Shown here one piece after another: positions 30,845 to 64,000 of a DNA stretch of 64,000 nucleotides. The DNA is taken from positions 1 through 64,000 of the forward strand of contig CAXHJY010000449.1 of the NCBI GenBank assembly GCA_964016885.1, given 5' to 3'. This DNA comes from Eledone cirrhosa (lineage: Eukaryota). The notes beneath the pieces were generated by a model, which did no database searches, was not told where the DNA came from, and saw nothing but the letters and a program-made list of their open reading frames with translations. Numbering within the stretch: the stretch's first letter is position 1; each line of letters opens with the position of its first letter. A program made the position numbers and the translations under genes.

Positions 30845-31414
30845 CTAACGTCGCTTTGTTCGTTTGTAAACAAACTGAACAGCCTGAATTTATGCCATAC
30901 GGTGTTAAGGCACTGATACGTGCATATATGTATGTGTACCTGTATGCATATGTATATGTATATGTATATATATATATGTGCGTGCTACTGTACGTCTGTA
31001 TACATATATGTATGTACGTATACATGCATACTTACATTTAAGTAAGTGCCATACTAAGAGTGAGAAATGAAATTTCGTTTTCATTTTGTTTCAATTTATC
31101 GTTTTCGGTATGCCTGACCGATTTAACTCACTCAATATGCAAATTAGGCTGCTCAGCCGTTAATTTTCATAAGGAAAGTATATACTTTCGAACGTTCAAC
31201 TATCTGGCAGATGGGTAAACGGTGCTGATGATAGCTAACAAGCTTGAAACTAGTACATCGTTCCTGTGTCAGTGTTGAACAAAAAGGTGACGTGGTTGCC
31301 TTAACACCGTATGGCATAAATTCAGGCTGTTCAGTTTGTTTACAAACGAACAAAGCGACGTTAGCGCCGCTAAACTGATACGTGCATATATGTATGTGTA
31401 CCTGTATGCATATG

Positions 31415-31445
<31 letters not shown>

Positions 31446-31568
31446 ATGTGCGTGCTACTGTACGTCTGTATACATATATGTATGTACGTATACATGCATA
31501 CTTACATTTAAGTAAGTGCCATACTAAGAGTGAGAAATGAAATTTCGTTTTCATTTTGTTTCAATTCA
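30845..31568 (+). mobile_element. Retrozyme-like family D: ~1.4 tandem monomers (period 462) with short inverted 5' arm
   Basis: 30913-31097 is repeated at 31375-31566; 30845-30912 is the reverse complement of ~31297-31363; HHR at 31218. Confidence 0.85.
31218..31262 (+). ncRNA. Minimal type I hammerhead ribozyme (family D)
   Basis: aacggtg-CTGATGA-tagct/aaca/agctt-GAAAC-TA-GTA-catcgtt. Confidence 0.9.
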
Positions 31569-31594: not shown

Positions 31595-31705
31595 GTGCAA
31601 ATTTATACGGGAACAAAACAGAGAGGCAGACAAATAAAGATTTATTAGGTTCACGCTTTTGAGAGGGGGGACGTTTCGGGCATAAGCCCTTCTTCAGGAG
31701 TAGAT
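31595..31705 (-). mobile_element. Penelope-like 3' end with HHR core
   Basis: Reverse complement: CTGAAGA-a-gggc/ttat/gccc-GAAAC-GTC; stem I is not paired. A related degenerate motif lies at 21285-21320(-). Confidence 0.6.
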
Positions 31706-32317: not shown

Positions 32318-33089
<772 letters not shown>

Positions 33090-33719: not shown

Positions 33720-33901
33720 ATTGTTATACTTGGGGAGGGTCATATTTTTGTAATATTGCCAGAATTAATAACAGAACACACTTACTCTTTGGTTGGTTTT
33801 CGCTTCTCGCTGTCTTTTATATCTGCGATCTAAAGTATAGCAATATTTGTTTCGACACACGACTTCATATAAAAAACCTCGCTAAACTAATTCATCGTCG
33901 C

Positions 33902-33932: not shown

Positions 33933-33947
33933 CCACCTATACATGTA

Positions 33948-33983
<36 letters not shown>

Positions 33984-34008
33984 TACATGTATAGGTATTA
34001 TATATATA

Positions 34009-34595: not shown

Positions 34596-34709
34596 CACAT
34601 TACAACCCAAGAGCAAGAATGAAGGGTTCTTTCTGCTGACATGGATATAAAATTGAGGCTTGTCTGCATAATTACAAACGAATCGAATATTATTATTAAT
34701 TATCGAAGA

Positions 34710-34898
34710 GGGTGGTGGATTGGCAGTATCGGTAAGGGTCGGACGCCATGCTTTGAAGCATAGAGTTACCTCCCTTTATGACCTGAGTTCAAATCCCGCC
34801 GAGGTTAACTTTGCCTTTCATCCTTACGGAGTCGATAAAATAAAGTACCAGTAATGCACTGGTTAATTGCTGGCCTTGTGCCTAAAGTAGAAACAATT
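34710..34898 (+). mobile_element. tRNA-derived SINE family 1, full length
   Basis: TSD ATTATTAATTATCGAA on both sides. Confidence 0.92.
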
Positions 34899-34921
34899 AT
34901 TAATTATCGAAAAACTCACAT

Positions 34922-34961
<40 letters not shown>

Positions 34962-34966
<5 letters not shown>

Positions 34967-35064
34967 TGTCACATAAATAAATGTATACACACTTTGATTA
35001 CCAATACAGGCAATATTTATTAGAGTGCTGTTGAAGTGTGTGTACATTTTGGGGAACACCTTGT
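34962..35064. mobile_element. Short Tc1/mariner-type MITE
   Basis: Internally deleted relative of 40261-40433. Confidence 0.65.
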
Positions 35065-35415
35065 ATATATAAAGAGAGACACCACATATATATGTGAATA
35101 TATATATGTGAATAATAACATTATTCTTTCTGCACCATTTCTTTAACATGTCCAACACCACCATTCTACACCAATACATATTATTATCATTTGATAAGGC
35201 ATAACAATGCTGAAACCGGTAATAGACAATTATTAATATAAATAAATAAATAAATGCCATTGTTAATCAATAAATAAATCAACTAATACCTTAACACTTC
35301 ACACAAAGTAAAATATTTCGTGTTAATCATTTTCTAACTCAGAAAAAAGAGAGAGAGAAACAAAAAGGAAAAAAATATTTTTTTTTTTCTTCCTAATAAT
35401 CGTCTTTTTCGCCGT

Positions 35416-38367: not shown

Positions 38368-38738
38368 GGTCGGACCCTATGCTTTGACGCATAGAGTTAC
38401 GGCCCTTGCCATTCTGAGTTGTTCAAATCCGCCGGGGTTAACTTTGCCTTTCATCCTTACGGGGTCGATAAAATAAAGTACCAGCATGGCATCCGACTCT
38501 CTACCGATACTGCCAATCCACCGCGCTATATATATATATATAATATATATATGTATAATTGTTTCTACTTTAGGCACAAGGCCAGCAATTACCCAGTGCA
38601 TTACTGGTACTTTATTTTATCGACCCCGTAAGGATGAAAGGCAAAGTCAACCTCGGCGGGATTTGAACTCAGATCGTAAAGGGACATAACTATGCTGGAA
38701 AGCATGGCGTCCGACCCTCTACCGATACTGCCAATCCA
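38368..38738. mobile_element. Family-1 SINE cluster: + copy 38368-38484, inverted 5' piece 38485-38525, full - copy 38557-38738
   Basis: SINE body motifs on both strands. Confidence 0.88.
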
Positions 38739-38782: not shown

Positions 38783-39192
38783 TGAGATGACCCCTTAGCC
38801 TTTGTCAAGGCAGAATTCTAGGAGAAGGAAAACTCTGATATAACACCTGCAACCCTAAAGGTATCCAATGATGTTGACTTGTCCTTCTTTTTGGTAAATA
38901 TCATCTTGGTTAAGAGAGTGGGACTGGCTTTGTGCAGTGCCTTTCCTCACTATAAAAGCTTCACGGTACAGGCATTGCTTTATATCTGGAGATCTCTCTG
39001 CACTTGTCGTCACATGGTACCATGGGCCCAGCACTATGTGTCAATAATTGTCACAAGTGTAGTGTTTGTACCAGAGTTTTCATGTCGCTTGCTGGACTAA
39101 AAAGTCACACTCGTTCAGCGCATCGGTAGGGGTTCTCCTACATGGATATAAAGTAGTGGCCGTACTCGAAAACGAGTTGGCAGCCGCCATAT
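38783..39192 (-). mobile_element. Second copy of the 9805-10390 repeat
   Basis: Reverse complement of 9805-10213. Confidence 0.8.
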
Positions 39193-39257
39193 ATTTATAT
39201 AAACATGTATTACACATACACATACACACACTATATATATATATATATATATACATA

Positions 39258-40260: not shown

Positions 40261-40426
40261 TACAGGGTGTCCCCAAAAGATGTATACACACTGATTACCT
40301 GCACAGGCAATATTTATTAGAAGGCATAGACATAATTCAATTGTATGCAAACCCCCGAAAATGTTTACATAATTTAAATAAATTTTTTTTTTTTGCTGTT
40401 AAAGTGTGTATACATTTTTGGGAGAC

Positions 40427-40433
<7 letters not shown>
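40261..40433. mobile_element. Tc1/mariner-type MITE
   Basis: ~30-bp TIRs TACAGGGTGTCCCCAAAAGATGTATACACACT / AGTGTGTATACATTTTTGGGAGACACCCTATA with TA target. Confidence 0.85.
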
Positions 40434-41272: not shown

Positions 41273-41360
41273 TTGTGTATAGTGGTAGCTATGGTGCCTC
41301 CACAGGCGGTATGCCAAAATTAGCACTCGATATTCACCAGAGTAGAGTGTAGATAGTATA

Positions 41361-41633
41361 AAGAAAACGAAAAATCAGTGATGCATCTGGACTTGGTTTA
41401 TTTCGTGTTACAAATGTTTCGCCGGCAGGTAGCTCGAGACACGGTCCTTGTATGGATCTGGCTTGAAAGAACCTATAGAAAGAACCTGCAGAAATAGAAG
41501 AACCTTGAAAGAACCTGCAGAAATAGAATCAGCCAGATCCATACAAGGACCGTGTCTCGAGCTACATGCCGGCGAAACATTTGTAACACGAAATAAACCA
41601 AGTCCAGATGCATCACTGATTTTTCGTTTTCTT
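41361..41633. mobile_element. HHR element family E, ~103-bp inverted arms
   Basis: Arms 41361-41464 and 41531-41633. cgtgt-CTCGA-gct..ggc-GAAACA-tt-TGTA-acacg; the core lacks 2 nt. Confidence 0.75.
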
Positions 41634-41634
41634 G

Positions 41635-41695
<61 letters not shown>

Positions 41696-41734
41696 AGGAG
41701 GTTATAGTTCACTTGAAGCATTGTGTAATGAGGT

Positions 41735-41980
41735 ATAAACGTTAGAATATGTGTAATAAGGCTAAGACAATGCAGATATGGACATAGAAAAAAAAAAAAA
41801 AGAATGCAATAGTGAAAGATATTGATGAGAATTCGTCTTTCACCTTGAATTTTAAGGACATTTAAATAAATTCAAGGTGAAAGACGAATTCTCATCAATA
41901 TCTTTCACTATTGCATTCTTTTTTTTTTTTTTTCTATGTCCATATCTGCATTGTCTTGGCCTTATTACACATATTCTAAC

Positions 41981-41986
<6 letters not shown>
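41735..41986. mobile_element. Inverted-arm element family F (~116-bp arms)
   Basis: Arms 41735-41851 and 41869-41986. Possible HHR 3' half GAAAGA-cgaat-TCTC. Confidence 0.7.
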
Positions 41987-43574: not shown

Positions 43575-43748
43575 CTAAGGCGGGTAAAATTCCCGAGATC
43601 CATGGACGAGTTCTCTCCAGCGGTCTCTGTCCTTCATTATCGCTGCCATATCCTGCATCTCCAACAGACCAGTGTCTGTCCTTAGGGCATCAACATATGT
43701 TAACCTTGGTCTTCCTCTTCTAGTGTGTCCATGTAGGGGCTCCCAAAG
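43575..43748 (-). mobile_element. RTE-clade LINE 3' fragment
   Basis: Minus strand: LWEPLHGHTRRGRPRLTYVDALRTDTGLLEMQDMAAIMKDRDRWRELVHGSR, a typical RTE C-terminus. Confidence 0.85.
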
Positions 43749-43755
43749 GATATAT

Positions 43756-46001: not shown

Positions 46002-46057
<56 letters not shown>

Positions 46058-46059
<2 letters not shown>

Positions 46060-46320
46060 GGTGTTGGATGCTTAAAACGTCCGTATGCGGTTGGCCGTAT
46101 GAGCACTCGATGCTCTCATAGAGCAGAGTATGATATCACAGAAAAAAAGAGAATCAGTGAGATACGTCTTCGTAGAATCAAAACGTATTTGAAGACCTTG
46201 AGATTTTCAGAGTCAGGTTCGATCATCACATCGATCGTGCCGCGAGCTGGTCGCCAGAGAAACGATTGTAATATGTCCAATAAATTCCATTCGTCGCAAC
46301 ACTGATTCTCTTTTTTTTCT

Positions 46321-46327
<7 letters not shown>
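46058..46327. mobile_element. Inverted-arm element between (TA)n tracts
   Basis: ATATCACAGAAAAAAAGAGAATCAGTG at 46133 is inverted at 46300-46327. Confidence 0.6.
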
Positions 46328-46388
<61 letters not shown>

Positions 46389-46631
46389 AAGCAAAGAAAA
46401 TGTCAATGATACGAAAGATTTCCTGATGGAAGTTCAGGTGTACTCTGGGTTGGTATCCATTTTCGGGGTGAAAATCCAATTAGAAAATCCAACGAATTTA
46501 AACCTTAAGACCCTCTTCCTGCTATATCAAGCGCGTTAACCTAATACATCCCTTCCATATACTGTACCGATTGTGTTATTTTTTCTGTTTTCCTTTTACA
46601 TACATATTTGTGTGTATATATATATATATAC

Positions 46632-47090: not shown

Positions 47091-47220
47091 AAGTTTATAT
47101 AGAAAAGGCTTCTACAACACTAAAACTGTTTCATTCATGTGAAATCAGCTGGGATGCAGTTCTAGTCCTGTAGAAGCCTTTTCTATATAAACTTCTGTCG
47201 TCACTATGTATTGACTTTAT
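47091..47220. mobile_element. HHR element family A, truncated inverted copy
   Basis: AAGTTTATATAGAAAAGGCTTCTACA..TGTAGAAGCCTTTTCTATATAAACTT. Confidence 0.75.
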
Positions 47221-47244
47221 TTACTCCTCCCTCTCTCTCTCTCT

Positions 47245-47327
<83 letters not shown>

Positions 47328-47331
<4 letters not shown>

Positions 47332-47531
47332 AACGAGTAGGACCCCGACGGCTAAGCTCAAGCCGTTTCGACGGCTGATTCTTTTTTTTTTTTTAGTCCA
47401 GAATTAGCCGTCGAAACGGCTTGAGCTCAGCCGTCGGGGTACTACTCGTTCCTATTACCCACTCTACTACCCTAAGTATTGAGTACTTTGGTGCGTTATG
47501 GTCCATCTGGTCCCTTACCACATTTCCTTCG

Positions 47532-47533
<2 letters not shown>
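47328..47533 (+). mobile_element. HHR element family G, inverted arms plus tail
   Basis: Arms 47328-47381 and 47400-47454. HHR 3' half GAAACGGCT-tgagctc-AGCCGTC with GUC triplet; 5' core is truncated. Confidence 0.75.
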
Positions 47534-47581
<48 letters not shown>

Positions 47582-47816
47582 GAGCGTCAGCTGAAACGTT
47601 CATTGATTGACTTACGAAGGAGTGATGCTAGAGCTGTAAAATCTTGCATGCATTAATTTCAACTTAACTGTATTGTTTCTTTCCAGGGACTATGTCGAAT
47701 AATAAACCTCATTTAGTTATTCCATGAGAGTATCTTGGTCGGCTTAACTTTACAGCCGACTCTCATATATGTGTGTGTGTATGTGGTCTATATACATATA
47801 TATATAGAGGGAGATA

Positions 47817-47847
<31 letters not shown>

Positions 47848-47948
47848 AATATAAGATCAAAAGATGGTTAAAGGAGTTCCATGTATTTTATTATGCGCAT
47901 TTCAAAAACATTGCTTTATTGTACTACAATAAAACTCACCTCCTACAT
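47848..47948. mobile_element. HHR element family C, minimal 100-bp copy
   Basis: Same two termini as the 6929 and 56406 copies; flanked by an ~80-bp direct duplication. Confidence 0.8.
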
Positions 47949-48220
47949 ATATTTATATATATATATATATGTGTGTGTGTATGTGGTCTATATACATATA
48001 TATATAGAGGGAGATATATATGTATATATATATATATATTTATATATATATGTGTGTGTGTGTGCAATTGCCCCACTATGTGGATGTTTTTAATGAAAAT
48101 ACTTGTATTTTTGTATATTTTCTGAAGTCTTTGAAGATACAAGATTGAGCGAAATTAAAAGTCGATATTGAAATCCTTGAGTCGATGTTCAGATTGTATT
48201 ATATAGACACATCTATATCT

Positions 48221-48410
48221 AAGGGCGGTAGATTGGCAGTATCGGTAGAGGGTCGGACGCCATGCTTTCCAGCATAGTTACGTCCCTTTATGATCTGAGT
48301 TCACATCCCGCCGAGGTTGACTTTGCCTTTCATCCTTACGGGGTCGATAAAATAAAGTACCAGTAATGCACTGAGTAATTGCTGGCCTTGTGCCAAATGT
48401 AGAAACAATT
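48221..48410 (+). mobile_element. tRNA-derived SINE family 1, full length
   Basis: TSD ATTATATAGACACATCT. Confidence 0.92.
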
Positions 48411-48673
48411 ATATAGACACATCTCTGTGTTGTAATAATGGAGCTTGAGCGAGGCTTTTGTCGGCTTTCTTATAGAAACATGTGTAAGGAAAATAAAATG
48501 TTCGTCTCGGTTTACTATCCATTGTTGTACATTGTTATACATGTGTCTGAATGTGCGTGCGTATACATATATATATATACACATACATAGAGTATACATA
48601 CAAATGTACATACACATACATACATACATACACACATACACGCATACAAATATACATACATACTTACATGCAT

Positions 48674-49984: not shown

Positions 49985-50346
49985 TATATACATATATGTA
50001 TACAGACGTACAGTAGTATGTATATATATATACATACATGCACACATATATATATGTACGTATGGATTCACCGAACATTTATTATAATGCTCGGTGTGTT
50101 TGTAAACAGACATCCCGTATTAAGCCGTAGTGTCAAACAAACCCATCGTTGCTCGTTTGTTCAACACTGACAAAGAAACGCTGTACTAGTTTCACGCTTA
50201 TTAGCTATCGTCAGCAACGTATATCTTCCTCACAGATTGTTGAACGTATATACTTACCTTATGCATATTAACGGCTGAGTAGCCCAATTTGCATATCGAG
50301 TGGGTTAATCGGCCGGGTGCACCGAAAACGATAAATGTAAAAAATG

Positions 50347-50349
<3 letters not shown>
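49985..50349 (-). mobile_element. Retrozyme-like family D; HHR 50179-50219
   Basis: Reverse complement acgttg-CTGACGA-tagctaataagcgt-GAAACTAGTA-cagcgt. Confidence 0.85.
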
Positions 50350-50414
<65 letters not shown>

Positions 50415-50826
50415 GAAACGTGTCAGGACCCCGACGGCTGAGCTCCGTTTCGACAGCTAGATCCGAACTAAGCTACCAGTATTGCTGGTAATATTGAGTA
50501 CTCTGGAACGTAATGGTCCACCTGGTATCTTACCACACCCTGCGCCATCATCCACTTTTCTATAAAAACAAATCATACACAAAACGCCAGCACCAACAGT
50601 TTTGCAAGAGATGTCAACATGAATGGACCTGTTATTTTTATCTAAAGACATTTTTTCCAATTCCATCCCGCCCGTCCCTAAATCTATTTTATTTCTCATT
50701 CTTTCTTTTGATGAAAGACTAGCGTCCGAAACGTTAAGACCCTATTCCTGCTATACCAAGCGTTAACCTAATATATACCTTCCATATACTGTACCCATTG
50801 TGTTGCTATTTCTGTTTACCTTTTAC

Positions 50827-50884: not shown

Positions 50885-51365
50885 CGAAGAAGGGGGTTAG
50901 GTGTAAAAACCAAACTAGCTATCTTCAATTCGGTAGTCGTGCCAACCGTTACCTATAGTCACGAATCTTGGGTAATGACCGAAAGAATACGATCTCAAAT
51001 ACAAGCAGCCGTAATGGGGTTCCTCCTAAATGTCTTTGGAGTAATGTTACTCGAAAGAGTTTGTAGCACGGAGATCAGAGAGTGACTCCGGGTAAAGCCG
51101 CTACTTCTCCGAATTGAGAGATCACAGTGCATGCGGTTAGAATGTCTCAGGAAGGAATCGTTGGACAGATTTTACTGGCAAAACCAACCAGCAAGAAACC
51201 CAGGGGTAAGATCCCGAGCAAGATGGTTGGATAACATGCATGAGCTTGGCTGGTTACACTTGGGGAACCAGCCAGATCAGTTGAAGACGGTTGCTTCTAA
51301 CAAAAACCTGTAGGAAGGAATGTTTGGGGACTCTGCCCACGACCCTCCTAGGAGTAAGTGAGCGA
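50885..51365 (+). mobile_element. RTE-clade LINE 3' fragment (degenerate)
   Basis: KTKLAIFNSVVVPTVTYSHESWVMTERIRSQIQAA..LLLRIERSQ..RARWLD, with a stop and indels. Confidence 0.9.
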
Positions 51366-51444: not shown

Positions 51445-51573
51445 CAAGAGATGTCAACATGAAACGTTAAGACCCTCTTCCTGGTATTTCAAGCGTTAAC
51501 CTAATATACCCCTTCCATATACTGTACCGATTGTGTTGTTATTTCTGCTTATCAACAATAGAACACAACACAA

Positions 51574-56405: not shown

Positions 56406-56413
<8 letters not shown>

Positions 56414-56822
56414 AGATCAAAAGATGGTTAAAGGAGTTCCATGTATTTTATTATGCGCATTTCAAAAACAAACATCATCATGCAATAATATTTGTGTTTT
56501 CATCAGATAAAACAGGAGAACATGATATGAAGGCTAAAAAACACTTGTGGATAGTGCAGTTTTAAATCAACATATGCACTAAAACTGCACTATCCACAAG
56601 TGTTTTTTTAGCCTTCATATCATGTTCTCCTGTTTTATCTTATGAAAACACAAATATTATTGCATGATGATGTTTGTTTTTGAAATGCGCATAATAAAAT
56701 ACATGGAACTCCTTTAACCATCTTTTGATCTTATATTATGTATACTCCAGTCCTACAAACTGTAGAGTGCTTCTTATCCGATATCTGCATTGCTTTATTG
56801 TACTACAATAAAACTCACCTCC

Positions 56823-56827
<5 letters not shown>
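56406..56827 (+). mobile_element. HHR element family C, ~159-bp inverted arms plus 87-bp tail
   Basis: Arms 56406-56564 and 56580-56739. The - arm core CTGATGA is intact; the + arm is mutated to CTTATGA. Confidence 0.85.
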
Positions 56828-56907
<80 letters not shown>

Positions 56908-56913
<6 letters not shown>

Positions 56914-57138
56914 ATACTTGGGGAGGGTCATATTTGTGTAATATTGCCAGAATTAATAACAGAACACACTCACTGTTTGGTTGGTTTTCGCTTCTCGCTG
57001 TCTTTTATATCTGCGATCTAACTTAATCTGTTATTAATTCTGGCAATATTACACAAATATGACCCTCCCCAAGTATAACAATATTTGTTTCGACACACGA
57101 TTTCATATAAAAAACTTCGCTAAACTAATTCATCGCCG

Positions 57139-57140
<2 letters not shown>
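56908..57140. mobile_element. Inverted-arm plus tail element family I
   Basis: Arms 56906-56964 and 57027-57084; sister of 33720-33902. Confidence 0.8.
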
Positions 57141-57212: not shown

Positions 57213-57277
<65 letters not shown>

Positions 57278-57297
57278 TATTATAAAGATATATATAT

Positions 57298-57420
57298 ACG
57301 AAAAGTAAACAGAAAACAACAAAGCAAGCAATACAGTACAATAAAACGATATTAGTTTAAATCTTGATATAGTAGGAAAATAATCGTAACATTTCGGACG
57401 CTAGTACTTCTTCAGAGGAT
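57298..57420 (-). mobile_element. Penelope-like 3' end with degenerate HHR (family H)
   Basis: Reverse complement CTGAAGA-agtactagcgtcc-GAAATGTTA. Confidence 0.55.
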
Positions 57421-57479
57421 AGTATGAGAAATAAAACAAATAGGAAAATAAGAGGGCTGTGGGGGACAGAATTCTCACA

Positions 57480-58018
57480 CATTCCTTCCAGCGGGTCCTG
57501 TCAGAAGCAACCCTCTCCAACTGATCCGTCTAGATCCCCAAGCGCGACCAGCCAAGCTCATGGATGTCGATCCAGCCATCTTGCTCGAGGTTTACCCCTG
57601 GGTCTCCTACCGGTTGGTTTTGCCCGTAAAATCTGTCCAGCTATTCTTTCCTGAGACATTCTAACCACAAGCCCATAGTATCGGAGCTGTGATCTCTCAA
57701 TTCGGAGAAGTAGCGGCTCTACCTGGAGTGACTCTCTGATCTCCGAGCTACACACTCTTTCGAGTAACGTTACTCCAAAGACCCTTCGGGGGGACCCCAC
57801 TTTGCCGCGTGTATTCGCGGTCGTATTCTTTCGGTCATTACCCAAGTTTCATGACTATAGTTAAGGGTTGGCACAAATACAGAATTGAAGATAACGAGTT
57901 TGGCTTTTACGCCGACATCACTTCTGATTATTGAATGCTGAAGCTGGTGCAATACTGCACCAGCTCCTGCAATTTTTGAACTCACTTCAGCCTCCTGCCT
58001 TCCATCACTCGTGAACAC
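57480..58018 (-). mobile_element. RTE-clade LINE 3' fragment
   Basis: FTSDGRQEAEVSSKIAGAGAV..KAKLVIFNSVFVPTLNYSHETW..RRPRGKPRARWLD; same family as 50885. Confidence 0.9.
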
Positions 58019-60506: not shown

Positions 60507-60512
<6 letters not shown>

Positions 60513-61496
60513 GGAAAAAATGAAACGAAATTTCATTTCCCACTCTTAGTACGGCTGTTACTTAAATATAAGTATGTATACGTACATACATATATGTATA
60601 CAGACGTACAGTAGTATGTATATATATATATATACATACATGCACACATATATATATGTACGTATGGATTCACCAAACATTTATTATAATGCTCGGTGTG
60701 TTTGTAAACAAACATCCCGTATTAAGCCGTAGTGTCTAGCAACCACCGTTGCTCGTTTGTTCAACACTGACAAAGGAGCGCTGTACTAGTTTCAAGCTTG
60801 TTAGCTATCGTCAGCAACGTATACCTTCCTGCCAAATAGTTGAACGTCCGAAAGTATATACTTTCCTTATGCATATTAACGGCTGAGTAGCCCAATTTGC
60901 ATATCGAGTGGGTTAATCGGCTGGGTGCACCGAAACCGATAAATGAAAAAAATGAAACGAAATTTCATTTCCCACCATACGTACATATATATATTTGTGC
61001 ATGTATGTATATATATATACATACTACTGTACGTCTGTATACATATATGTATGTACGTATACATACTTATATTTAAGTAACAGCCGTACTAAGAGTGGGA
61101 AATGAAATTTCGTTTCATTTTTTCCGTTTATCGTTTTCGGTGCACCTGGCCGATTAACCCACTCGATATGCAAATTGGGCTACTCAGCCGTTAATATGCA
61201 TAAGGAAAGTATATACTTTCGGACGTTCAACTATCTGGCAGGAAGGTATACGTTGCTGACGATAGCTAACAAGCCTGAAACTAGTACAGCGTTCCTTTGT
61301 CAGTGTTGAACAAACGAGCAACGGTGGTTGCTAGACACTGTACGGCTTAATTCGGGATGTTTGTTTACAAACACACCGAGTATTATAATAAATGTTTGGT
61401 GAATCCATACGTACATATATACATGTGTGCATGTATGTATATATATATACATACTACTGTACGTCTGTATACATGTATGTATGTACGTATACATAC

Positions 61497-61502
<6 letters not shown>
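60507..61502. mobile_element. Retrozyme-like family D: head-to-head arms, each longer than one ~430-bp monomer
   Basis: Left arm 60507-60974(-) has period 432; right arm 60975-61502(+) has period 430. HHRs at 60779-60819(-) and 61251-61291(+). Confidence 0.9.
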
Positions 61503-61527
<25 letters not shown>

Positions 61528-61950
61528 AATTCTAACGACAAATATCTAATGGAATGAGGTAAATTATTATATCAATCTGTGTGTGAGTGTATGTGAGTAA
61601 ATGTATGTCTGTGTGTGAATGTGTATTAATGTATGTATGTACGTACGTTTATATGTATGTACGTACGTTTATATGTATATACGTACGTTTCTATGTATAT
61701 ATGCATGTACGTATGTATGTAAGTGTATGTATGTATATATGTATGTACGTACCTATGTACGTACGTATATACGTATGTATGTCCGTTTCTATGTATGCAT
61801 GTATGTATATACGTACATGTATATCTACCTCTCTATGTACATATGTACGTATCTATCTAAGTATGTATTACATATATACATATGAATATTACATATATAT
61901 TCATCTATGTACATACGTATGTATGGATGTATCTATATACGTATGTATGG

Positions 61951-64000
61951 AAGAACAAATTCAAGACCACATGGATGCATCCTGCATCTAAGGAATGGCA
62001 TCTTTTGGACTACGTCCTAGTCAGGATGCGTGACAGACAGGATGTGCAGTGTGTTCGTGTTCTTCGTGGAGCTGAGTGCTGGACGGACCACCGCCTGGTA
62101 CGCGCAAAAGTGAATCTAATCACCAAACGTAAAATCCGGGCTCCTGGTGTTACCCTGCCCAAAAGATTGAATGCTGCTCGTCTTAAGGATAAAAATGTGA
62201 AGAGGACATTGGAAGAAGAGATGCAGGCTGCAGATCTTGGTGAGGATTGGCCGACCCTTAAAAAGTCGGTTTATGATGTAGGCAGACGTGTTCTGGGATT
62301 GGTGCAGAGAAAACATCAGGACTGGTTTGATGAGAAAGATGTGCATATAGATGACTTGTTGGCTGATAAGAGGCGCGCTCTGTCACGCTACTTGACGGCA
62401 AAACCACAGGAGAGGAATACGTTGCATGAGGAGCTCAGGGATGTAAAATCACGCGTTAGGCGGAGTCTTTCTCAGATGAAGGATCAGTGGTGGAGTGAGA
62501 AGGCTGGTGAGATACAAACTGCGTCTGATTGCAATAACACAAAGCTGTTGTACAGTCTCTTGCGTGAGGTTTATGGACCGTCTTCTTCTCTGGTGACACC
62601 GATTCGCAGCAAGGATGGCAAAGAACTTCTTCGTGACTCACAGGGAATTCTACGAAGGTGGCGAGAGCACTTTGATGATCTTTTGAATCAGCCGTCTGTC
62701 GTCAGTGAAGATTTCCTCAATCTCATTCCGGAAAGTCCTGTGAAAGTAGCTCTCGCAGAACCTCCGACACTTGTGGAGGTTGCAGTGGCTATTTCGAAGC
62801 TGAACAGTGGAAGATCTCCAGGTATGGATGGCATACATGCTGAGCTCCTACAATATGGTGGTGAGAGACTCCTGCAACATCTTCACTCTCTGTTTGGAAG
62901 GATATGGGCTAATGAATCCGTGCCTGAGGACTGGAGAGATGCAGTAATGGTGGTCTTGTACAAGGGAAAGGGTAACAGGAATGATTGTGGGAACTACAGA
63001 GGTATATCATTGCTTTCTGTCGTGGGGAAAGTTTTATGTAGGGTGCTTCTGGACCGTCTGCTGACACACATTGCAGATTGTGTCCTTCCTGAAAGTCAAT
63101 CTGGTTTTCGTGTTGGACGCGGCACTACTGATATGATCTTCTCAGCTAGACAGCTCCAGGAGAAGTGCATTGAACAGGGCTTGGATCTGTATCAGGTTTT
63201 TGTCGATCTGACAAAGGCTTTCGATACTGTCAACAGAGATGCATTATGGAAGGTTCTCCAGAAACTTGGTTGCCCTGATAAGTTCCTTGCTTTAGTTAGG
63301 TCTTTCCATGACGACATGAAGGCTTGGGTTAATGTCGGAGGTAACATGTCGGAGCCTATCTCAGTAAAAAATGGAGTGAAACAGGGGGATATTCCAGCAC
63401 CGACCCTGTTTGCCATATACTTTGCAATGGTTTTCTGTATTGCATTCAGGAATTGCGAGCATGGTGTTTACATCCGATATCGAACCTCAGGCAGCATATT
63501 TAACATCAGGCGCTTTGCTGCGAAGACAAAAGTGTTTACATCGGTCATAAGAGACCTCTTGTATGCAGATGATTGCGATCTTGTAGCGCACACAGAGAGT
63601 GATATGCAGCACATTTTGAATGTATTTTCTGACGCTTGCACTGCCCTGGGTTTGACTGTCAGTCTCAAGAAAACCGTCGTCATGTACCAACCTGCACCTG
63701 GTAGGCAGTACACTGAACCAAACATCTATGTGTATGGCAAACGACTTGGAGTGGTTGATCAGTTTGTCTACCTGGGAAGCACTGTCAATCGATACGGCAA
63801 CCTTGACAGTGAAATCTCACTTAGGATTAGGAAAGCAAGTGATGCTTTCGGAAAGCTAGAAAGGCGACTCTGGGGTCGGCGAGACATATGCAGGAGGACA
63901 AAGGTAAGGGTGTACAGGGCATGTGTACTCTCTTGTCTTCTTTATGCCTGCGAGACCTGGGTCACATATCGACGCCACCTTAAGCAATTGGAGCGTTTCC
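61951..64000 (+). mobile_element. 5'-truncated RTE-clade LINE with open APE-RT ORF running off the window
   Basis: TTWMHPASKEWHLLDY..AECWTDHRLV (APE C-terminus), FVDLTKAFDTVNR, GVKQGD and LLYADD (63562), all in one frame with no stop seen. Confidence 0.95.

Follow-up and report, generated by a model that had tools for sequence, protein, structure and literature searches.

Head-to-head insertions with one-sided tails in (TA)n tracts of Eledone cirrhosa, and twin priming as a candidate origin

Composite insertions in the window

The DNA analysed here (the window) is a 64,000-nt stretch of contig CAXHJY010000449.1 from Eledone cirrhosa. It is eukaryotic non-coding DNA of 63% A+T, with simple and tandem repeats covering 29,559 of the 64,000 bases and with short unique-looking islands lying between 292 (TA)n runs of at least 10 nt. 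By self-BLAST and by eye we selected 17 head-to-head composites from nine families across the 64 kb, a small sample (Table 1). Their tails measure 44 to about 100 nt, and both ends are flanked by (TA)n in 13 of the 22 elements listed. Truncated forward-only copies are present in families A, G and E.

Table 1. Composite insertions, their parts and their flanking repeats in the window
Feature	Position	Strand	Remarks
C1	6931-7110		151-nt inverted arm (6931-7081) plus last 29 nt of tail, 2-nt joint
C1 hammerhead motif	6961-7031	-	in inverted arm
C2	47849-47946		62-nt inverted arm plus last 38 nt of tail, 2-nt joint
C2 13-bp duplication, left copy	47836-47848	+	right copy 47947-47959; both abut the ends of C2
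C2 flank repeat, 75 bp, exact	47765-47839	+	second copy 47965-48039
Target (TA)n run to the left of C3	56376-56408		final 3 nt also fit the template
C3 inverted arm, tail-less	56409-56564	-	begins at internal AU-rich site
C3 type I hammerhead motif	56444-56514	-	intact core; predicted cut near 56452
C3 hairpin-centre spacer, 15 nt	56565-56579		1 nt hints that it belongs to the inverted arm
C3 forward arm	56580-56736	+	carries hammerhead copy 56631-56701
Internal AU-rich site (P2)	56737-56744	+	best (TA)n-like 8-mer of the template
C3 tail, 89 nt, forward arm only	56737-56825	+	terminates at shared site P1
(TA)n run lying between C3 and I2	56826-56909		
I1	33722-33901		outer ends as I2; 50 nt of the middle absent
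I2	56910-57139		54-nt arms, 63-nt spacer, 59-nt tail
Family A composite (A8098)	8098-8283		identical 57-nt arms, 4-nt spacer, 68-nt tail
Family A hairpin (A27403)	27400-27541		4-nt spacer, most of tail missing
Family A composite (A47091)	47092-47230		inverted arm extends further 5' than forward arm
Family B (B8621)	8621-8820	+	hammerhead motif 8652-8694; 20-nt arms
Family G composite (G47330)	47330-47532		53-nt arms, 17-nt spacer, 80-nt tail
Family G composite (G50412)	50412-50540		long inverted arm, short forward piece
Composite H	41280-41636	-	tail at left, 106-nt arms
Composite J	41694-41983	-	44-nt tail at left, 115-nt arms, 15-nt spacer
Composite K	46057-46323	-	tail at left, 23-nt arms
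Family D composite (D30845)	30845-31567		diverged; inverted end at another site
Family D composite (D32555)	32555-33057		both outer ends common to D60507
Family D composite (D60507)	60510-61497		each arm exceeds one hammerhead-bearing unit (~440 nt); both outer ends lie within the unit

Ends and junctions of family C

The initial annotation described three copies of family C (C1, C2 and C3; 182, 101 and 422 nt in its coordinates) as having fixed ends and a variable middle. Motif searches and template coordinates agree with this description, with the ends constant within about 5 nt. A 12-nt motif from the start of the family occurs four times in the window (6929+, 47852+, 56412+ and 56722-) where 0.32 would be expected, and four was reached in 0 of 100 shuffles. 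A 14-nt tail motif has three mismatch-free occurrences (7097, 47935 and 56814); with two mismatches allowed, 0.71 would be expected, and three were reached in 4 of 100 shuffles. On a 246-nt template numbered from the tail end (56825 = 0), the outer end of the inverted arm lies at -94 to -89 in C1 and at -89 to -86 in C2 and C3, and is therefore not base-exact. For three ends placed at random on a 250-nt template, the probability of lying within 5 nt of one another is P = 0.0015; random outer ends were the result that the annotation had named as contrary to its proposal.

The inner ends vary. The inverted arm ends at -248, -150 and -245, and the forward arm at -28, -37 and -245, in C1, C2 and C3, respectively. 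The arms overlap by 0, 0 and 157 nt, and only C3 forms a hairpin, with arms of 156 and 157 nt that share 155 identical positions and differ by one mismatch and one gap. C1 and C2 each consist of two pieces from non-overlapping parts of the template, with an overlap of 2 nt at the junction. The inverted arm of C1 ends within 3 nt of the hairpin centre of C3. C1 and C3 have 141 identities, 9 mismatches and 5 gap columns over 155; C2 and C3 have no differences over 62 + 40 nt (102 nt compared).

In all three copies the inverted copy is joined head to head, and (TA)n adjoins both ends. Two target ends are joined to two different template sites, as had been proposed, and the internal AU-rich site postulated at the inverted end is also present: P2 matches (TA)n at 7 of 8 positions and is the best such 8-mer of the 246-nt template. 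A target duplication is visible in one of the three copies, namely C2, where it measures 13 bp or about 80 bp. The 75-bp repeat flanking C2 is either a long target duplication or an older tandem duplication. At C1 and C3 a duplication would be hidden in pure (TA)n. We considered a link between the length of the C tail (81-89 nt) and that of the C2 flank repeat (75-82 bp) and rejected it; it is a single case, and the letters at the junction agree better with a 13-bp duplication inside a tandem repeat of greater age. An identical 10-nt interruption of (TA)n occurs to the left of C3 (56366-56375) and to the right of I2 (57276-57285), and these interruptions may be a duplication flanking the C3-I2 pair.

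Junctions in the other families

Families A and G, which the initial annotation had thought similar to family C, have the same layout in alignments. Its extension to family I stood in part. The outer ends are shared, but I1 and I2 are colinear over their initial 112 nt and a single 50-nt gap is all that separates them, so family I is a weaker case of a variable middle. The inner junction of I1 has an overlap of 1 nt. In base skew the spacer of family I is T-rich, like most of the sense strands, yet the forward arm is not.

Judged by eye in the alignments, 5 of the 17 composites have an inverted arm that extends further 5' than the forward arm (C1, C2, A47091, G50412 and D60507; the junctions of A47091 and D60507 were likewise read from alignments), and in 6 it is the forward arm that extends further (A8098, A27403, G47330, B8621, D32555 and D30845). 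Neither arm can be assigned as the longer in the other 6 (C3, I1, I2, H, J and K). Loops or spacers are 4 nt long in A8098 and A27403 and 15-17 nt long in C3, J and G47330. The arms within a copy are nearly identical and have private variants in common. The 20-nt arms of B8621 may be a natural stem. The tail of G50412 contains a small inverted duplication (50474-50492) that resembles a local template switch.

Family D was found at 30845-31567, 32555-33057, 49985-50348 and 60510-61497 and has a retrozyme-like, hammerhead-bearing unit of about 440 nt. Its template continues beyond both outer sites, and the TA overlaps in D60507 are 3 and 5 nt. The inner arm parts of D60507 differ at 12 of 321 columns. 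These differences include a linked 2-nt indel and substitution, and each allele also occurs in another copy; neither arm is therefore a copy of the other as they stand. The arms longer than one unit suggest a tandem or circular template with mixed units. A solo copy, D49958, terminates near the internal site and has no partner. One of the three family D composites (30845) is an exception, with its inverted end elsewhere and without (TA)n. A 12-nt unit repeated 3.2 times (30814-30852) lies exactly at this outer junction, part in the flank and part in the element, and could reflect slippage at priming or a later duplication. Family E is represented by five 5'-truncated copies (7850-8012, 46498-46600, 50680-50826, 51452-51552 and 57299-57450), some with a hammerhead-like core and none with an inverted arm. 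The frequency of inversion seems to be family-specific.

TA microhomology at the outer inverted ends, the test named in the initial annotation, was found. Of the 16 inverted ends scored, 10 share 3 nt or more with (TA)n, where junctions placed at random on these templates would give 2.1 (P = 5e-6); counted by family, 5 of 9 do so against 1.0 expected (P = 0.0015). In family C the outer overlap is 3-5 nt. The remaining 6 of 16 ends overlap by 0-1 nt, and a summed-overlap test by family gave only P = 0.03. An earlier, stricter scoring gave 8 of 16 with per-family P = 0.08-0.28, and misjudged C2 and K, where an indel or a shift of phase affects the junction. B8621 was scored 0 as a result of an alignment shift, and G50412, which has no tail-side template of its own, was omitted. 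Given that P2 is the most TA-like tract in family C, microhomology alone could fix the end there, in priming and in joining alike.

The middle of the composites had been described as variable. It is variable but not freely so; the inner ends are not random and are capped at a family-specific 5' limit. In family A, 7 of 8 arms end in a 13-nt interval at the start of hammerhead helix I, which extends from about 9 nt ahead of the first position of the ribozyme core to 3 nt beyond it. If truncation is geometric with a mean of 60-150 nt, this clustering has P <=0.0004 for the arms and <=0.0012 for the 5 loci. In family C, 3 of 6 arms end at -245 to -248, and in family G three arms end within about 10 nt. 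The limit could reflect a strong stop, or else the template may have been a short RNA whose 5' end is fixed. Ribozyme cleavage was rejected as its source; the long arms pass through the predicted cut site.

Hammerhead ribozyme motifs

On the tail-carrying strand, the predicted type I hammerhead of family C has an 8-bp stem I, a stem II of 12-15 bp and an 8-nt palindrome replacing stem III. The forward copy in C3 has a core substitution at 56641. With a descriptor of our own, six hammerhead motifs (two in family C, one in B and three in D) were found in 34,441 unmasked bases; in 100 shuffles the mean count was 0.03 and no shuffle had more than 1. No hammerhead core was found in I2 with this descriptor. 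C1 and C3 differ by four stem substitutions, all one-sided and pairing-preserving, and by a fifth at a free core position; a stem-pairing shuffle control gave 500/500 and, with three rows, is powerless. Arms cross the predicted cut site, so the ribozyme was presumably uncut in the template.

Rfam did not find the hammerhead in the C3 inverted arm, nor was a hammerhead among the 150 matches listed of 401 for the whole window. Those 150 were microRNA-type models on simple repeats or hairpins and one viral UTR model, all under their gathering scores. A MIR529-like match lies at the C3 centre. B8621 has a weak match to Rfam HH9 (19.8 bits, E 0.012), also under the gathering score. RNA folding was no better than that of shuffles for the C hammerhead region (z -0.72; stems I and II in the centroid only) or for the tail (z -0.66). 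Hammerhead-like cores with a 4-bp GC-rich stem II were also seen in forward-only form at 21230-21320 and 31600-31700 (minus).

Class assignment of family C

Family C is very probably a member of the Penelope-like element (PLE) class, judged by its RNA motif, layout and target. We infer its membership only from these features because the window contains no PLE ORF. No GIY-YIG domain was found in the 134 non-repetitive frames of at least 55 aa in the window, and no ORF with PLE reverse transcriptase (RT) and GIY-YIG lies within or beside any copy there. Family C is not filed as an autonomous PLE. Phage and plasmid collections, which are uninformative on eukaryotes, gave no match to it.

The sole RT in the window is a 713-aa open frame (61861-63999, +) that runs off the window end and matches RVT_1 (E 5e-31) as well as LINE-1 and R2 chains. 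It is the only clear protein-coding remnant among the 134 frames. From its looks we take it to be an RTE-clade LINE, and the element is possibly young. We found no evidence for this LINE-type RT as the driver of the composites.

The initial annotation compared family C with Penelope-like pseudo-LTRs (pLTRs), and the comparison is borne out by the predicted type I hammerhead in the inverted arms of C1 and C3, the tail at one end, the (TA)n target and the flanking duplication. Family C behaves like a truncated PLE pLTR insertion, with an inverted, tail-less copy and a forward copy that has the tail. We do not regard it as a MITE, because the 89-nt tail is external to the inverted repeat, and such a repeat is missing altogether from C1 and C2. 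The constant-length terminal inverted repeats and defined target duplication that the annotation would have taken for a MITE are absent, the arm overlap being inconstant and the sole visible duplication being at least 13 bp. A candidate for a true MITE, in contrast to family C, is a 166-bp element (40265-40430; relative near 34965-35070) that lies between TA runs and has terminal inverted repeats of 28 bp. Of the features of L1-type insertions, microhomology is found at the outer ends of family C and at the inner junctions of C1, C2 and I1 (2, 2 and 1 nt), but there is no poly(A) at the tail end and the family D template continues past the site. Non-LTR retrozymes do not fit either, since family C is never tandem and the arms of family D comprise 1.05-1.2 units with one hammerhead each rather than two full units.

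A model for the origin of the composites

Twin priming is in our opinion the best reading of the composites, and we hold it with moderate confidence. The copies would be dead 5'-truncated insertions of a hammerhead-bearing PLE pLTR or of a short non-autonomous derivative, made by an RT/GIY-YIG protein encoded outside the window and acting in trans. This protein would nick both strands of (TA)n in staggered positions; the target and one flanking duplication are observed, and the nicking is presumed. One target 3' end would then prime cDNA synthesis at the tail end (P1). The other would pair over 3-5 nt with the UA-rich tract 86-94 nt upstream (P2) and prime cDNA of the opposite strand. The two fixed junctions and the microhomology are seen directly, and we interpret both as priming events. 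P1 and P2 are probably both internal to the RNA. The initial annotation had placed one primer at the RNA 3' end, a placement that the data do not support; the family D template passes both sites, and the start sites of the Poseidon protein PAc described below are internal (PMC11167929).

Each cDNA would halt early or reach the family-specific 5' limit, about 245-260 nt from P1, where the observed clustering of ends may mark the RNA 5' end or a strong stop. The cDNA 3' ends would finally be joined head to head through microhomology of 1-2 nt, as seen at the junctions, and filled in by a repair route that we can only suppose. Two long cDNAs would give a hairpin with a tail, as in C3, and a short forward cDNA would give non-overlapping pieces, as in C1 and C2. 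C3 needs the same 157 nt to be copied twice, and hence two RNAs, a tandem RNA or strand displacement. Constant outer and variable inner ends, the (TA)n overlaps, the arm differences of D60507, the solo copy D49958, the 13-bp duplication at C2 and the hammerhead motifs all speak for twin priming. The 4-nt loops and the 15-17-nt spacers, which are what fold-back gives, speak against it, as do the resemblance of C1 and I1 to one-sided deletions from a hairpin centre and the lack of a driver protein among the 134 frames.

The principal alternative, to which we assign a minor but real share of the probability, is single priming followed by fold-back, in which one tail-end cDNA snaps back and is copied as DNA up to the UA-rich tract. 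On this account, and with the same lesser degree of probability, the end at the tract would come from microhomology joining or from a cut by the element endonuclease, and the centres of C1, C2 and I1 would have been deleted later. The short loops and spacers (A8098, A27403; C3, J, G47330), the near-identical arms with common private variants and the coincidence of the C1 arm terminus with the C3 centre are what such a process would leave. Fold-back of a single cDNA, however, places the inverted arm inside the forward arm. The inverted pieces of C1 and C2 are missing from their forward pieces and so cannot have been copied from them without a second event; such an event is needed in 5 of the 11 assignable composites, and the pure form predicts none. 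C2 does not differ from C3 over 102 nt and has kept its 13-bp duplication, yet its hairpin is gone. The solo copy that ends near the internal site is left unexplained, as are RT start sites at both tail boundaries (PMC11167929). A mixed tandem template with fold-back and deletion would likewise account for D60507. Two cDNA ends that anneal through a short self-complementary word leave letters identical to those of snap-back. Single junctions therefore cannot discriminate, and it is the two-site, both-strand initiation reported in the available text of PMC11167929 that tips the balance toward twin priming.

We consider it improbable that a master composite, hairpin and tail together, was copied whole as a MITE or a short non-autonomous retroelement and later shortened by deletions, even though C1 and C2 could each be had from C3 by removing one internal block, and I1 from I2 by removing 50 nt. 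The two ends are not inverses of each other, the tail is external to the repeat, and the overlaps are 0, 0 and 157 nt. The arms of C3 agree at 155 of 157 positions, against 141 of 155 between C1 and C3, and family A subfamilies carry their own variants on both arms; a match that is better within copies than between them indicates that the hairpin formed anew at each insertion. The truncated forward-only copies in A, G and E also argue against a master element. Two independent head-to-head insertions into one (TA)n tract would fit the stacking of different elements in one tract (C3 beside I2, H beside J) and the differing arms of D60507 at shared sites. This is very improbable; the inner junctions have 1-2-nt overlaps instead of a (TA)n remnant, and the two pieces are always of one family, one tailed and the other tail-less. 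We give the least credence to a sequencing or assembly artefact from fold-back reads at (AT)n. Hairpins do adjoin long (AT)n, and a host palindrome at about 33934-33998 is centred on (AT)n, but the same ends recur at three loci, with non-overlapping arms, arm differences and a flanking duplication, and published PLEs have a matching layout.

Twin priming may even be programmed, that is, the normal mode of PLE integration, in which a dimer would nick (TA)n and each end would prime at a fixed pLTR site. We put this forward tentatively, as possible rather than probable. If it were true, the inverted pLTR would be a second first-strand cDNA and not a fold-back product, and where priming took place on the 5' pLTR of a transcript, the cDNAs would reach the transcription start after 130-260 nt and end there by run-off. 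One explanation would then cover the hairpins, the inner limit specific to each family and the excess of solo pLTR ribozymes among animals.

Relation to known systems

Inverted 5'-truncated copies, a 30-40-bp tail at one end and (TA)n targeting have been described for endonuclease-bearing PLEs (PMC8557442), and in Pen2a_Av of Adineta the inverted pLTR is 37 bp shorter than the full one and the duplications are 8-10 bp (PMC3846280). As described in the available portions of these papers, such insertions resemble the composites in the inverted 5'-truncated copy beside the 5' end, the one-end tail, the (TA)n hiding duplications and the 5' overlap of the two copies, and they are comparable in duplication length (8-10 bp in Adineta, 13 bp here). 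They differ in the tails (44 to about 100 nt here, 89 nt in family C) and in that no ORF lies between the repeats here. Both papers call the formation of the inverted repeat and tail unresolved in the text available.

The purified protein PAc (Poseidon, from Anolis) nicks and extends both strands, prefers AT-rich DNA, is a predicted dimer and acts independently of ribozyme cleavage (PMC11167929). Its two start sites are adjacent, lie inside the RNA, delimit the tail and match genomic tail boundaries. On the twin-priming reading, the composites share with PAc the two start sites bounding the tail, extension of both strands, the AT-rich target and an uncut hammerhead template. The PAc start sites are said to be non-homologous to the target in the accessible part of that paper; in the composites, by contrast, a 3-5-nt overlap with (TA)n is seen at 10 of 16 inverted ends. 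Top-strand extension is not tied there to the inverted pLTR, and steps after initiation are left unvalidated, as far as the available text goes.

L1 twin priming likewise involves two target ends, one RNA species, an inverted 5' piece, and microhomology at outer and inner junctions (PMC2912911, from the text available). The composites differ from it in having no poly(A), a fixed internal site and arms that may overlap into a hairpin. L1 twin-primed pieces rarely overlap, and their sites are variable. Fold-back outcomes have been described at L1 breaks (bioRxiv 10.1101/2024.12.14.628481), and short 5'-truncated PLE insertions, together with long duplications from a LINE, in bioRxiv 10.1101/2022.05.23.493040.

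The type I hammerheads of PLE pLTRs occur mostly in solo copies and in some pairs 100-700 bp apart on opposite strands, as here (PMC4209133). Like these minimal hammerheads, that of family C has a long helix II and a short palindromic helix III; unlike them, its 12-15-bp helix II has no G10.1-C11.1 pair, which the available text calls highly conserved. Short hammerhead units have also been proposed to be non-autonomous PLE derivatives (bioRxiv 10.64898/2026.07.22.740005). Such non-LTR retrozymes are short, non-coding type I units, to which the more-than-unit arms of family D are comparable; family C differs in being non-tandem, and neither priming nor tails are discussed in the accessible text of the preprint.

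Earlier papers already cover two-site initiation as well as the layout, the ribozyme and the target, and what is gained here is a link between known facts and not a new system. In a search light on subscription papers, we found none that derives the inverted pLTR from twin priming. A term search of the supplement text of PMC11167929 was negative, and the figures of that supplement may bear on the matter. With 17 composites in 64 kb, the density permits a test from sequence alone, based on which arm owns the spacer and on comparing inner ends with transcription starts. In annotation, copies of this kind could easily be taken for MITEs or microRNA hairpins, and they also seed palindromes in (AT)n tracts.

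Other repeats in the window

A host-like palindrome to the right of I1, at about 33934-33998, has 18-nt arms and an (AT)14 centre, and is an element-free fold-back at (AT)n. A 190-nt SINE-like repeat is present in many copies that are 84-98% alike (18400-18923, 20267-20545, 22056-22241, 28308-28491, 34709-34902, 38368-38738 and 48222-48415), several of them with rearranged or duplicated ends. This abundant SINE is reminiscent of cephalopod repeats. LINE 3' end-like fragments occur at 50900-51350 and 57449-57913, in opposite orientation with 81% identity, and another at 43578-43755. A 418-bp repeat (9796-10213 and 38784-39201, opposite orientation, 95% identity) has a weak C2H2 zinc-finger match (E 4e-4) under the cut-off. 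At 29004-30247, a 600-bp palindrome is followed by sequence ending in a short hairpin and CTAG, which we take to be Helitron-like. A 6.5-kb array (71-6557) consists of 408 copies of a 16-nt pyrimidine-rich unit with 91% matches.
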